Made by a program: the position numbers and the translations under genes
Assembly (NCBI GenBank): GCA_041662585.1
Contig: JBAZSG010000005.1
Coordinates: 68,181-132,180 of the forward strand
Direction: 5' to 3'
DNA from: Patescibacteria group bacterium
GTDB lineage: Bacteria; Patescibacteriota; Patescibacteriia; UBA1558; GWA2-36-10
DNA: 64,000 nt
In this document: in pieces, positions 3,833 through 47,444 of the stretch
Layout: the number at the start of each line of letters is the position of its first letter
Position numbering within the stretch: the first letter of the stretch is position 1
Notes under the pieces: model-generated
The model's input: the letters and a program-made list of their open reading frames with translations, nothing else
What the model was told of the DNA's origin: nothing
The model's database searches: none

Positions 3833-4816
3833 ATGCCTAAAAATAATAAAAAAATATTTTTGTTTTTAGCCGGAGGTACTTGTATTTTTACAGAAGCTGG
3901 GCATATTTTTTCTGTAAAATCTCAAGATGATATTGAAGATTGGCTGGCTCAGATGCCGGAGTTGAATATTTTGGCTGATATTGAGCCAGTGTTTATCAGT
4001 GGTGAAGACGATTTGATTGGTCCAAATATTTGGCAGACAATAGCCAAGGAGATTATCAAAAGATCTGAAGAAGCCGATGGTTTTGTAATAGTGTCCAAGA
4101 TAGATCAGTTGATAAATACTTCTTTGGCACTGACTTTTGCTTTACAAAATTTGAAAAAAACCATAATTACCACCACCTCCAGAATCAGTGGCAGTAATTT
4201 TATTGATAAAAAAGAAGTTATCAGTAACCTCAAAAATAAATATGGCGGACTTAGTCTCAGATCCAATCTTATCAATGCTATTCAAGTGGCTCAGCAACCA
4301 TTGCCTGCTCCAGCTATTATGTTTGGTACGCGGTTGATAGCAGCTACTAGAGCCATTTTTGATCCACTAGGAGATGTCAATGTTTTTTCCAGTATCAGTG
4401 ATTGTTGGGGTAAGGTTGATTTTGGTATTAATGTCAAATCAAACTTGAAATATAATCAACAAAAAGCCAAAATTTATTCAGACAAATTGGCTGATATTTT
4501 GGTTTTTGATGATATACCAGGCGTACCGTGGTCTTTTGACAGACGAGCACTCACTGCTTATCGTGGTATATTTATCAAAGTAGATTCTTATCAAAAATTG
4601 GGAAAAAACAAGCAAGAGCAAATTATCAAGTGGAAAATGCCAATAGTCTTATATAATTATCACCTGACATCAACTAGTAAGGGAGCAATCAGTGTGTCAA
4701 ATTGTACATTCAATACAGCTCTCATCAAAACAATGTGGGCCTTGAGCAATGAATTCAATAAAAAGGATTTTGAAAATATAATGACCCAAAATATTATTGA
4801 AGAATTTTTAAATTAA
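3833..4816 (+). CDS. Asparaginase/glutaminase-fold protein, probably catalytically degenerate
   Basis: N-terminus IFLFLAGGTCIF aligns to the asparaginase hhxTGGTIA motif. DGFVIVSKIDQLINTSLALTFAL aligns to the GVVITHGTDTLEETAYFL region, but the HGTDT threonine is replaced (SKIDQ). Confidence 0.45.
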   Translation: MPKNNKKIFLFLAGGTCIFTEAGHIFSVKSQDDIEDWLAQMPELNILADIEPVFISGEDDLIGPNIWQTIAKEIIKRSEEADGFVIVSKIDQLINTSLALTFALQNLKKTIITTTSRISGSNFIDKKEVISNLKNKYGGLSLRSNLINAIQVAQQPLPAPAIMFGTRLIAATRAIFDPLGDVNVFSSISDCWGKVDFGINVKSNLKYNQQKAKIYSDKLADILVFDDIPGVPWSFDRRALTAYRGIFIKVDSYQKLGKNKQEQIIKWKMPIVLYNYHLTSTSKGAISVSNCTFNTALIKTMWALSNEFNKKDFENIMTQNIIEEFLN

Positions 4817-21829: not shown

Positions 21830-21990
21830 TATTGTATTTTTACTATATAATAATCACATAATTTAAATATAAATGGCCGTAGACAGTGGGTTTCTAGCTA
21901 ATATTAGCCAAGAATTAAATATCCTACCGAGGTAGAAAAAACTAGTTTTTCAGCTGTCTGCGCTATTATACGCAGATTTTTTTAATAAAC
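21830..21990 (+). promoter_or_regulatory. Putative rplJ (L10) leader / autoregulatory 5'UTR
   Basis: ~200-nt non-coding gap before rplJ with GC-richer, structured-looking sequence (GGCCGTAGACAGTGGG .. CAGCTGTCTGCGCTATTATACGCAG). Position is analogous to known L10 leaders. Confidence 0.3.
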
Positions 21991-21996
21991 AAATAT

Positions 21997-44068: not shown

Positions 44069-44110
44069 TACACCACCCATTATAGTTGCTAGGGTGGTGT
44101 AGTATTGTTT
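44069..44110 (+). terminator. Terminator-like hairpin after the hydrolase gene
   Basis: 10-bp stem TACACCACCC .. GGGTGGTGTA with a 13-nt loop; weak T-run. Confidence 0.45.
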
Positions 44111-44351
44111 GGGACTATTGAAGCCCCTATTTGTCGTGCCAGCTCTCTCTGTTGCAGGGGCTGGGCTCTTTTCTTTCGGGGTGCTTGATGTCTTTGTTGT
44201 CTTTGGACGTGTTGTCTTTGGACATGATGATGTCTCCAATCTCTGATTTTAGGGGTTTATAGAAAAAAAGATTTTTGACTATATTTTTGGAAAGATCAGG
44301 ACTTAAATTTACTGAGATCATAATATTTTTTTATTAAATAGTCAATGCCAA

Positions 44352-44380
44352 ATTGACAAAATAGCAATAAATTGCTAGTA
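44352..44380 (+). promoter_or_regulatory. Sigma70-type promoter (TTGACA-17-TAGTAT) upstream of tRNA-Asn and the cysK leader
   Basis: ATTGACAAAATAGCAATAAATTGCTAGTAT; possible start of a tRNA-Asn / leader / cysK transcript. Confidence 0.4.
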
Positions 44381-44519
44381 TATAAATACTATGAAATATA
44401 TTAAAGTTAACAATTGTTTAAATAATAATAACGGATTTATCAGCCGAGGATTTTTTATATAATATAAAATTACATTTTTAGAGAGTTATCGGCTATACAA
44501 ATAGTCGATTTTTTAATAT

Positions 44520-44594
44520 TCCGGGGTAGTTGAGTGGTACAACGCTACGCTGTTAACGTAGATATCGCAGGTTCGATCCCTGCCCCCGGAGCCA
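44520..44594 (+). tRNA. tRNA-Asn (anticodon GTT)
   Basis: TCCGGGG acceptor, anticodon arm CTACG-CTGTTAA-CGTAG, T-arm GCAGG-TTCGATC-CCTGC, encoded CCA. Confidence 0.85.
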
Positions 44595-44612
44595 AAAATA
44601 GTAATTATTAAT

Positions 44613-44690
44613 ATGACAAAATATATAATAAAAAATTTGACTTTTTGTTGCAAAGGACAAAATCCGAGAGCATTTTTTTGGTGTTGTTGA
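44613..44690 (+). CDS. Cys-codon-rich leader peptide (MTKYIIKNLTFCCKGQNPRAFFWCC)
   Basis: 25 codons, 4 Cys, as tandem TGT TGC (44646-51) and TGT TGT (44682-87) immediately before the TGA stop. Directly upstream of the attenuator hairpins and cysK. Confidence 0.5.
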   Translation: MTKYIIKNLTFCCKGQNPRAFFWCC

Positions 44691-44737
44691 AATATACATA
44701 AATATCAATCTCAGCTCTCGGGAAACCGAGATTTTTT
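44664..44737 (+). promoter_or_regulatory. Transcription attenuator: alternative antiterminator (44664-71 with 44714-21) versus terminator (44716-31 plus U-run)
   Basis: CCGAGAGC (44664-71) is complementary to GCTCTCGG (44714-21). The latter overlaps the 5' arm of the terminator TCTCGG-GAAA-CCGAGA followed by TTTTTTATT. Confidence 0.5.
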
Positions 44738-44756
44738 ATTATTAATAATTATAAAT

Positions 44757-45647
44757 ATGATTTATCAAAATATATTAGCTACAATTGGCAATACACCATT
44801 GGTAAAAATAAATAAGCTGAATAAAAATAAAAAAGTTAACATATATATTAAATTAGAAGGACAAAATCCTGGTGGCTCGATTAAAGATAGAATAGCCATA
44901 GCAATGGTTGAAGCCGCAGAAAAAACTGGTGAATTAACCAAAGATAAAACAATAATTGAAGCAACTTCTGGTAATACGGGTATTGGACTAGCTATGGTGG
45001 CTGCTTTTAAAGGTTATAGAGCTACATTTATTATGTCTGAGGCTATGAGTGAAGAAAGAAAAAAAATAATTGAATCTTTTGGGGCAAAAATTATATTTAC
45101 ATCTAAAAATGGAGGCACAGATGGTGCTATAGTCAAAGCACAGGAAATATTGAAAGCTGAGCCTGAAAAATATTGGATGCCCAATCAATTTGTTAATATG
45201 GAGAATCCCAAAGCGCATTATCAGACAACAGCCGAAGAGATATTAAGAGATATGCCAACCATCACTCATTTTATTGTTGGTATAGGTACATCTGGTACTA
45301 TGACTGGTGTTGCTAGACGTTTGCGTGAATATAATCCAAAGATTAAAATAATTGCCGTTGAGCCATTACCTGGACATAAAGTTCAGGGATTAAAAAATAT
45401 GAAGGAGGCTATAGTACCTAAAATATATAATCCTAAGAATTATGATGAAAAAATTAGTGTTGAAGATCAGGTTGTTTACAAAACGGTAAAAAAAATGGTA
45501 AAAAAGGAAGGAATTTTTGTTGGTATGAGTTCTGGAGCGGCTATTTATGTAGCTCTTAAAATGGCAGAAAAATTAAAATTTGGCGATTTGGTAGCCATTG
45601 CTCCAGATAGGGGAGATAAATATATAAGTACCAATTTATTTAATTAA
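44757..45647 (+). CDS. cysK: Cysteine synthase (O-acetylserine sulfhydrylase)
   Basis: PLP-lysine motif GGSIKDRIA; glycine-rich ATSGNTGIGLAMV; SGAA PLP phosphate loop; 296 aa. Confidence 0.85.
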   Translation: MIYQNILATIGNTPLVKINKLNKNKKVNIYIKLEGQNPGGSIKDRIAIAMVEAAEKTGELTKDKTIIEATSGNTGIGLAMVAAFKGYRATFIMSEAMSEERKKIIESFGAKIIFTSKNGGTDGAIVKAQEILKAEPEKYWMPNQFVNMENPKAHYQTTAEEILRDMPTITHFIVGIGTSGTMTGVARRLREYNPKIKIIAVEPLPGHKVQGLKNMKEAIVPKIYNPKNYDEKISVEDQVVYKTVKKMVKKEGIFVGMSSGAAIYVALKMAEKLKFGDLVAIAPDRGDKYISTNLFN

Positions 45648-45683: not shown

Positions 45684-47444
45684 ATGAAATATTTAACCAA
45701 GCAGACATTTAAAGTTTTTTGGAAAAACTCATTAAAATATAAATGGGCTCTTTTTATTATGCTGTTATCTATCATCATAGCTTCACTTGGTAGTATTATA
45801 GCGCCGTTGTATTATAAAGATTTTTTTAATATTTTGAGTATCACAGATACCAGTATTGATAGGGTAGCGATGCTTAAAGTGACCTTGATGAAAGTACTGG
45901 CTATACATTTTATTTCTTGGATTTTTTGGAGAGCGGCTACTTTTTTATCAAGTTATTTTCAAACACATGGTATGGCAGATTTATTGAACTCTTCTTTTGC
46001 TTATCTACACAAACATTCTATTTCTTTTTTTAATAATAATTTTGTTGGTTCACTGGTAAAAAAAGTAAATAGATTTTCTAGAGCGTTTGAAGTAATAACA
46101 GATTTGTTATTTTGGGATTTGTTGCCAACATTTATAAATGTATTTTTGATTATTATAGTACTGGGTAAACGAAATATATTTTTGGGTCTGGGTATTTTAC
46201 TTTGGACGCTTATATACTTGTTGATAAACTATTATTTTTCTATTTACAAATTAAAATATGATGTAGAGAGAGCTCAGCTCAATTCCAAAGTAACTGGAGT
46301 ATTGGCCGACACTATTACCAATCATTTAAATTTGAAATTATTTACAGGTTATGATAGAGAAAAAAAAGGTTTTGAAGAAATAAATAGTCAATATCAAAAG
46401 TTGCATCTTTTTACTTGGAATTTGGCCAATTATTTTGAAGCTGGGCAGGCATTACTCATGATGATATTGGAAATTGGTGTAATGTATTATTCTATTTCTT
46501 TGTGGCAAAAAGGTATTATAGATGTCGGAGAATTTGTCTTAATTCAAACTTATTTAGTCAGTATTATCATGCGTTTATGGAATTTTGGTCGGATTATTAG
46601 AAAATATTATGAAGCCATGGCTGATGCTGAAGAAATGACCGAAATACTGGAAACTCCTCATGAAATAAAAGATGTAAAAAATGCCAAGATTTTGAAAGTA
46701 TCAGGGGGCAAGATAGAATTTAAAGAAGTAGATTTTTCTTACAACAAAACTCGTAAGATAATTTCGGATTTTAATTTAAATATCAAGGCCAAAGAAAAAA
46801 TAGCTTTAGTGGGTGCTTCTGGTTCTGGTAAAACAACAGTAGTAAATCTACTACTTAGAAATTATGATATTGATAGTGGCAAAATATTAATAGATAATCA
46901 AAAAATAATCAGTGTTACTCAAGATTCTTTGTGGCAAAACATAGCTTTGGTTAATCAAGATCCAGTTTTATTTCATCGAACATTAAAAGAAAATATTAGC
47001 TATGGCAAATCAAATGCTAGTGATAATGAAATTATGAAGGCAGCCAAATTGGCTCATGCTCATTCTTTTATAGAAAGTTTTCCTGAAAAATATGAAACAT
47101 ATGTTGGGGAAAGAGGAGTCAAATTGTCTGGTGGTGAAAGACAACGCATTGCTATTGCTCGGGCTATCTTAAAAAATGCTCCTATTTTGATATTGGATGA
47201 GGCTACATCATCTTTGGATTCAGAATCAGAAGAATTGATTCAAGATGCTTTGGCCAACTTGATGAAAAATAAGACCGTTATAGTCATTGCTCATAGATTG
47301 TCTACTATTATGAAAATGGACAGAATTATTGTTTTTGATGGTGGACAAATAGTTGAGCAAGGTACTCACAAAGAATTGATTACTAAAAAGCAAGGATTAT
47401 ACAGTAGGCTTTGGAAAAAACAGGTAGGTGGTTTTATTGCTTAA
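45684..47444 (+). CDS. ABC transporter, fused permease/ATPase (MsbA/LmrA-type exporter)
   Basis: 6-TM N-terminal domain; Walker A GASGSGKTT; signature LSGGERQRIAIARA; Walker B ILILDEATS. Confidence 0.88.
   Translation: MKYLTKQTFKVFWKNSLKYKWALFIMLLSIIIASLGSIIAPLYYKDFFNILSITDTSIDRVAMLKVTLMKVLAIHFISWIFWRAATFLSSYFQTHGMADLLNSSFAYLHKHSISFFNNNFVGSLVKKVNRFSRAFEVITDLLFWDLLPTFINVFLIIIVLGKRNIFLGLGILLWTLIYLLINYYFSIYKLKYDVERAQLNSKVTGVLADTITNHLNLKLFTGYDREKKGFEEINSQYQKLHLFTWNLANYFEAGQALLMMILEIGVMYYSISLWQKGIIDVGEFVLIQTYLVSIIMRLWNFGRIIRKYYEAMADAEEMTEILETPHEIKDVKNAKILKVSGGKIEFKEVDFSYNKTRKIISDFNLNIKAKEKIALVGASGSGKTTVVNLLLRNYDIDSGKILIDNQKIISVTQDSLWQNIALVNQDPVLFHRTLKENISYGKSNASDNEIMKAAKLAHAHSFIESFPEKYETYVGERGVKLSGGERQRIAIARAILKNAPILILDEATSSLDSESEELIQDALANLMKNKTVIVIAHRLSTIMKMDRIIVFDGGQIVEQGTHKELITKKQGLYSRLWKKQVGGFIA

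Follow-up and report, generated by a model that had tools for sequence, protein, structure and literature searches.

A conserved cysteine-codon leader upstream of cysK in Patescibacteria, probably a ribosome-mediated transcription attenuator

Leader peptides and the regulation of cysteine genes

[quoted passage not shown] The region upstream of the Patescibacteria cysK gene analysed here is built in the same way. As in the classical systems, stalling at the regulatory codons would free the antiterminator strand according to our modelling, and at three related loci (L012, L019 and L008) folding predicts a 1:2 hairpin that gives termination without a ribosome. The cysK leader differs from these attenuators in using cysteine as the regulatory amino acid, in having no match in Rfam and in belonging to the phyla Patescibacteria and Bacteroidota, as well as in having a uORF that is probably leaderless at most loci, starting 6-10 nt after the -10 box, and a second cluster of Cys codons 3' of the antiterminator strand.

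Leaders with Cys codons have been described elsewhere. Candidates without terminator hairpins were reported upstream of actinobacterial (mycobacterial) cys operons (Seliverstov et al. 2005, PMC1262725), and the polycysteine leaderless short ORFs of Mycobacterium smegmatis, which have been studied experimentally, act on translation (Canestrari et al. 2020, 10.1101/834739); at Ms5788, the one locus studied in detail, the downstream ribosome-binding site is hidden in a duplex until a stalled ribosome opens it (10.1101/834739). The mycobacterial ORFs and the leader described here share tandem Cys codons upstream of cysteine-metabolism genes and, as proposed here, ribosome stalling as the cysteine sensor, and the uORF is probably leaderless at most of the related cysK loci, as the mycobacterial ORFs are, but here an intrinsic terminator is predicted and no ribosome-binding site lies within the structure. 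Two further systems have been predicted upstream of cysS, namely the uORFC-8-2 motif with a terminator in Rhodobacterales (Brewer et al. 2021, PMC8632094) and, in Deinococcus deserti, a leaderless peptide of 10 residues with a Cys-Cys pair (PMC4007540). In both of them, as in the cysK leader, a terminator-like stem with a U-run comes after the tandem Cys codons. Unlike the cysK leader, however, they would control the cysteinyl-tRNA synthetase, have only one Cys pair and occur in other phyla, and there is no sequence similarity. T-box elements, the S-box (SAM riboswitch), CymR and CysB regulate the same pathway; the cysK leader has no T-box or SAM match, is only about 125 nt long, and its model needs no element for binding a regulator.

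Given the four precedents (PMC1262725, 10.1101/834739, PMC8632094, PMC4007540), a Cys leader attenuator is less unusual than the original prediction, made from the DNA letters of this region, had held. The literature found on cysK leaders describes none of the terminator type, and we found no publication in which leader peptides and attenuation are mentioned for Patescibacteria or the candidate phyla radiation. The cysK Cys leader of Patescibacteria would therefore represent a known mechanism in a conserved, previously unlisted family, with no earlier description found for cysK in these phyla.

Organization and conservation of the cysK leader

The elements named in the original prediction, i.e. 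the short ORF, the complementarity of CCGAGAGC and GCTCTCGG, the hairpin with its T6 run, tRNA-Asn and cysK, were all confirmed (Table 1) in the window, by which we mean the entire 64,000-nt stretch of DNA analysed. The downstream gene is annotated as cysteine synthase at both NCBI and JGI, and NCBI attributes the identical CysK to a Patescibacteria genome; its ATG follows the end of the hairpin by 25 nt, and its start region is AU-rich, without a Shine-Dalgarno sequence and outside the predicted helices. The host genome has 32% G+C and uses the standard code. A reading of UGA as Gly (code 25), by which the leader, being in frame with cysK with no further stop, would be fused to it, was ruled out because TGA is the stop of 6 of 55 genes, because code 11 yields long, closely spaced ORFs, and because the other leaders end in TAA or TAG.

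Table 1. Features of the tRNA-Asn-cysK region of the window and leader peptides at related cysK loci
Feature	Position	Strand	Details
Sigma-70-like promoter, TTGACA-17-TAGTAT with TG	44353..44381	+	10/12 matches; ends 9 nt 5' of ATG 44391
Candidate second leader ORF MKYIKVNNCLNNNNGFISRGFFI, near-leaderless	44391..44462	+	Asn run 44421-44432
Terminator-like hairpin ATCGGCTAT-ACAA-ATAGTCGAT and T-run	44488..44514 (hairpin 44488-44509)	+	-8.8 kcal/mol; between promoter and tRNA-Asn
tRNA-Asn(GTT), CCA encoded	44520..44594	+	Rfam tRNA 69.1 bits; 18 nt before Cys leader ATG
Cys leader ORF MTKYIIKNLTFCCKGQNPRAFFWCC, 25 codons, TGA stop	44613..44690	+	Equivalents at 14 other loci
Cys pairs in leader ORF	44646-44651 (regulatory) and 44682-44687 (second)	+
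Antiterminator 5' strand (segment 2 / B) CCGAGAGC	44664..44671	+	Near copy of terminator 3' arm
Segment 3 GCTCTCGG	44714..44721	+	Common to antiterminator and terminator 5' arm
Predicted intrinsic terminator, TCTCGG-GAAA-CCGAGA then T6	44716..44737 (hairpin 44716-44731, T6 44732-44737)	+	-9.0 kcal/mol
cysK/cysM-type cysteine synthase, ATG 44757	44757..45647	+	TIGR01136 369.5 bits, cutoff 344 (NCBIfam)
Leader peptide, L012			MIIIINTIKKLSCCSRKNPRVFFWCCF
Leader peptide, L009			MKRAIMKLTFCCYTLVFFSRVGCCCQR
Leader peptide, L010/L015			MNKTTIIKLNICCCALAFISRVGCCRFCS
Leader peptide, L019			MILNNKYNSINCCCCSLNIFSRGNFWC
Leader peptide, L023			MKHISKKCCVCCYILEFSRAAC
Leader peptide, L024			MKQNCHNCCCNCCCNQYSAGGICRC
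Leader peptide, L026			MINDSLNTNSCCCVLLNQKRVFYCCL
Leader peptide, L027			MNKTILTKLNSCCCNSSNIKREFCCCRQK
Leader peptide, L022/L028			MDKMIFSETKICCRRP (L028: N for K at position 10); Moranbacteria
Leader peptide, L017			MNSNKCQQNTCNCCCNCCCLPHFSIC; upstream of serine-kinase-like gene and cysK
Leader peptide, L034			MNNKSDQKNCCCKACTKEVVFLYP; Peregrinibacteria
Leader peptide, L008			MILKTIQMCCCCCCCAASRAGWLFVV; Chitinophagaceae

Cys accounts for four of the 25 leader codons, compared with 0.54% of the residues in the proteins of the window, and the leader (44613-44690) is the only one of 310 small ORFs (ATG-initiated, 15-40 codons, six frames of the window) to contain two Cys-Cys pairs. On these grounds the Cys leader ORF is unlikely to be a product of chance. 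The 14 homologous leaders have 2-8 Cys each in peptides of 16 to 29 residues; TGT and TGC are used alike and the residues other than Cys are poorly conserved, so that selection appears to act on the Cys codons.

The layout of the window recurs at cysK homologues drawn from contigs of genomes and metagenomes, namely on 13 further contigs of Patescibacteria, Moranbacteria and Peregrinibacteria among them, and in one Chitinophagaceae genome. In this layout a short uORF with a Cys run is followed by an inner segment copying the terminator 3' arm, located within the uORF or just 3' of it, then by a hairpin with a T-run, and finally by cysK. Five to seven T follow the hairpin at every bacterial locus, and the distance from terminator to cysK is 21-37 nt, or 63 nt in L019/L020. 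cysK identity is 60-69% for L009, L010/L015, L012, L017, L019, L022, L023, L024, L026, L027, L028 and L034, and merely 40% for the Chitinophagaceae locus, which nevertheless has the same layout upstream. Conservation upstream of orthologous cysK genes, whose absence would have counted against the original prediction, was found in that uORF, terminator and alternative pairing occur together at 13 of 15 Patescibacteria cysK loci, the window included, and additionally at one Bacteroidota locus.

At L001, L002, L004-L007, L013-L014 and L030, the last from Woesearchaeota, a leader was not found, and cysK belongs to an operon or follows another gene closely. L025 (565-665) has a good promoter, a leaderless 11-codon ORF without Cys codons (MEMISLFGSFF) and a hairpin with T8, and its would-be antiterminator strand is located inside the promoter spacer; this upstream region may be a decayed or rewired attenuator. 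On an archaeal-type contig, L003 (2889-2966, identical in L011 at 2389-2466), a gap of 29 nt separates the end of the uORF MKRNREINKKNITKKLVSYSCFCCC from a cysK with 61% identity, and an intron-bearing tRNA lies just upstream of the uORF. This archaeal Cys uORF was rejected as an attenuator because it has no terminator and no significant fold (z = -0.25). Genes related to SerK, ParB-N or SbnI (serine kinase or O-phosphoserine synthase) adjoin several cysK homologues (L017 679-1488; L034 1908-2300; L030 594-995; L002 upstream of 3001), which suggests from gene neighbourhood an O-phosphoserine-dependent route to cysteine at these loci; in L017 the Cys leader precedes both the SerK-like gene and cysK.

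The original prediction placed the leader between tRNA-Asn and cysK, to which a correction regarding transcription has to be added. Two promoter scans gave no promoter of its own for the leader or cysK within the window, the best candidate matching at 7 of 12 positions, and the promoter at 44353-44381 is the sole good one upstream of tRNA-Asn, the Cys leader and cysK. Since this is the nearest good promoter, the leader and cysK are probably co-transcribed with tRNA-Asn. At nine of 11 related loci the best sigma-70-like promoter matches at 10-11 of 12 positions and ends 6-10 nt before the leader ATG, from which the uORF is probably leaderless there; in the window tRNA-Asn occupies the place of this promoter. 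No Shine-Dalgarno sequence precedes the ATG of the window leader, and the same holds for nearly all gene starts inspected in the genome. Since the leader has neither a Shine-Dalgarno sequence nor its own promoter, its translation would have to begin on a tRNA-mRNA co-transcript, a point against its being an attenuator. Gene starts such as those at 45684, 48954 and 56199 have a TATAAT-like box 5-10 nt before the ATG and no Shine-Dalgarno sequence, and leaderless mRNAs may be common in this genome. On the minus strand of the adjoining region (44070-44345) there are a divergent promoter (44345-44317), a small ORF MSKDNTSKDNKDIKHPERKEPSPCNRESWHDK (about 44127-44225), which with its GGAGAC ribosome-binding site is among the few genes of the window preceded by a Shine-Dalgarno sequence, and a hairpin terminator near 44070-44100.

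Alternative pairing and the proposed mechanism

The two mutually exclusive structures that had been proposed are both borne out by folding. The minimum-energy fold of 44595-44745 is the antiterminator (-33.8 kcal/mol, z = -4.6, with none of 200 dinucleotide shuffles as good), and the terminator shares segment 3 with it. The duplex of CCGAGAGC and GCTCTCGG has an energy of -15.6 kcal/mol, equalled in one of 200 shuffles; over the leaders the energies of the antiterminator duplex range from -9.3 to -15.6 kcal/mol and are matched by at most three of 200 shuffles, except in L020, where the segment is mutated. L020 (1288-1445) and L019 (1289-1445) come from near-identical contigs and have CGAGACG and CGAGAGG, respectively, as antiterminator strand. 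Whatever its sequence, the inner segment mirrors the terminator 3' arm in every leader, with pairs such as CCGAGAGC/GCTCTCGG, CGAGAGG/CCTCTCG, GAGAGTATTT/AAATACTCTC, GCTGGTGGTATT/AATACCCCTGC and GAGGTCGT/ACGACCTC.

Covariation was assessed in an alignment of ten leaders, from which the three segments were cut out and anchored solely on the GAGAG and CTCTC cores. Pairing is possible in 83.6% of the cells of the antiterminator helix, versus 71.0% in shuffles, and the covariation score is 0.317 versus 0.150, neither value being reached in any of 500 shuffles; sliding the partner by one to three columns lowers the pairing to 30-52%. Six of the 11 antiterminator pairs show double-sided changes, the position after GAGAG, for example, being C:G, G:C or U:A depending on the locus, and in L024, L017, L008 and L034 the whole antiterminator helix has been swapped for another that still pairs. 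Within the GAGAG subfamily no covariation is seen in the terminator helix, which is conserved. When 44300-44900 was compared with the Rfam families at a permissive threshold (E up to 10), the tRNA alone was matched, with no T-box, SAM riboswitch or leader family. Over the whole window solely tRNAs and one L10 leader were matched, the latter being the ribosomal protein L10 leader RF00557 at 21859-21992 (55.2 bits), the only non-tRNA match.

The effect of a translating ribosome was modelled by folding, for each codon, only the RNA 3' of the ribosome, with a footprint that reaches 12 nt beyond the first A-site base and no helix allowed to span the ribosome. This is equilibrium thermodynamics with an assumed footprint rather than co-transcriptional kinetics, and its output is modelling, not evidence of termination. 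In the window the predicted probability of the terminator is 0 through both Cys codons of the first pair, 0.4 at the next codon and 0.9 thereafter. For the window and 13 of the 14 other loci it stays between 0 and 0.5 while the first Cys run occupies the A site and reaches about 0.9 within the next one to four codons, the value after the run being lower (0.6-0.8) in L022, L028 and L034; the exception is L020, for which the terminator is predicted at every ribosome position. The predicted switch thus falls at the first Cys run, where it had been placed originally. In 12 leaders the distance from the final Cys codon of the first cluster to the start of the antiterminator strand was measured; it is 11-19 nt, a gap that fits a ribosome whose edge just fails to cover the strand. 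Ribosome-free RNA is predicted to prefer the antiterminator in the window, L009, L023, L024, L026 and L034, while a ribosome far upstream also gives the terminator in L012, L019 and L008, as in the classical 1:2 / 2:3 / 3:4 scheme.

Taken with the conservation, the antiterminator covariation and the switch point from masked folding support the earlier reading of the locus as a Cys-leader attenuator, and we consider it very probable, from comparative sequence data and modelling, that cysK is controlled by ribosome-mediated attenuation of transcription, with the leader-peptide ORF as the sensor of cysteinyl-tRNA. RNA polymerase starting at the promoter at 44353-44381 would run through tRNA-Asn and then the 25-codon leader. 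When Cys-tRNA is scarce, the ribosome would stall with codons 12-13 (UGU UGC) in the A site and with its 3' edge about 2-5 nt short of CCGAGAGC, which would then be free to pair with the nascent GCUCUCGG, so that no terminator is made and cysK is transcribed. When Cys-tRNA is plentiful, the ribosome would proceed over CCGAGAGC towards the stop codon and keep this segment from its partner; UCUCGG-GAAA-CCGAGA with U6 would form, and transcription would end 20 nt before cysK. That the leader is translated, that termination actually takes place and that it responds to cysteine is what we infer.

Near the end of ten leaders, among the last seven codons and 3' of the antiterminator strand, there are one to three further Cys codons; this second cluster is absent from the Moranbacteria and Bacteroidota versions. 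Its bases constitute one strand of an inner helix within the antiterminator, and a stall at this point is predicted by masked folding to favour termination. The second cluster is not accounted for by the simple attenuation model and has no clear role; it might delay the ribosome there long enough for the terminator to be made.

The lack of a role for the second cluster in a termination model is one of the points in favour of another reading, in which the uORF does sense cysteine but the output is translation of cysK or stability of its mRNA rather than termination. The experimentally studied precedent acts on translation (10.1101/834739), and the archaeal L003 has a Cys uORF close to cysK with no terminator. 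Nevertheless, the T-run that follows the hairpin in every bacterial locus speaks for termination, and the hairpin ends 21-63 nt before the cysK ATG, clear of a start region that has no Shine-Dalgarno sequence to sequester; we regard such an output as unlikely. Less probable still, and already contradicted by the comparative data, is that the hairpin simply terminates the tRNA-Asn transcription unit and that a T/G-rich spacer has yielded the Cys-rich ORF by chance. The hairpin does lie about 120 nt 3' of the tRNA gene, and a hairpin with a T-run also follows other tRNA genes of the window and genome, namely those for tRNA-Glu and tRNA-Lys; yet uORF, antiterminator and terminator are shared by 14 other loci with no tRNA nearby, an ORF with two Cys-Cys pairs occurs just once among the 310, and a separate promoter for cysK was not found. 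That the ORF encodes a functional Cys-rich micropeptide, metal-binding or redox-active for instance, with incidental hairpins, is equally improbable, since, in spite of the recurrence of two Cys clusters across ten leaders, peptide length and Cys number vary widely, residues other than Cys are unconserved, the Moranbacteria and Bacteroidota leaders have no second cluster, and the conserved nucleotides are those of the pairing segments.

The Asn-rich unit upstream of tRNA-Asn and wider significance

Between the promoter and tRNA-Asn there is a second candidate unit, consisting of a near-leaderless ORF and a terminator-like hairpin (Table 1). The ORF (44391-44462) is the only one of the 310 small ORFs with four consecutive Asn codons, and AGCCGA (44442-44447) can pair with TCGGCT (44489-44494) in the 5' arm of the hairpin. 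In masked folding the probability of the terminator is 0 up to the last Asn codon, 0.1 at the next codon and 0.8 two codons later, a switch geometry that is the same as in the Cys leaders. The promoter scan gave no other promoter for tRNA-Asn. AAT repeats arise easily in AT-rich DNA, and comparative loci are lacking since no tRNA-Asn is present in any of the cysK loci compared. An origin of the Asn unit by duplication of the Cys unit was rejected on the basis of nucleotide similarity, which does not reach significance (the best local alignment joins the two units out of register and through low-complexity sequence), and of a search with the Cys-leader profile, in which the Asn unit did not appear among the matches listed (E up to about 4). 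No leaders were found before the other tRNAs inspected, i.e. tRNA-Glu, tRNA-Lys and tRNA-Thr of the window and tRNA-Cys of L001; in this last contig the end of a cysS-like gene and tRNA-Cys(GCA) (3933-4330, minus strand) are convergent to a leader-free cysK, which lies 3' of a PLP-enzyme gene. Folding would be compatible with two tandem attenuators on one transcript, the Asn unit gating tRNA-Asn through its own cognate codons and cysK, whose leader has no promoter of its own, being subject to both checkpoints. We propose this arrangement tentatively and hold it to be possible rather than probable; no report of leader-peptide control of a tRNA gene was found in the literature.

To our knowledge, hardly anything is known of how genes are regulated in Patescibacteria; these bacteria cannot be cultured by themselves, and their recognisable regulators are few. 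A cysteine sensor that needs no protein and is present across several of their lineages, including Moranbacteria and Peregrinibacteria, would mean that ribosome-mediated attenuation is used there, and would add two phyla, and the gene for cysteine synthase itself, to the range of Cys leaders with terminators. The element would also mark real transcription units, with probably leaderless starts, in metagenome-assembled genomes. The design with two Cys clusters and the possible Asn leader before tRNA-Asn are both small enough to be taken into heterologous or cell-free systems.
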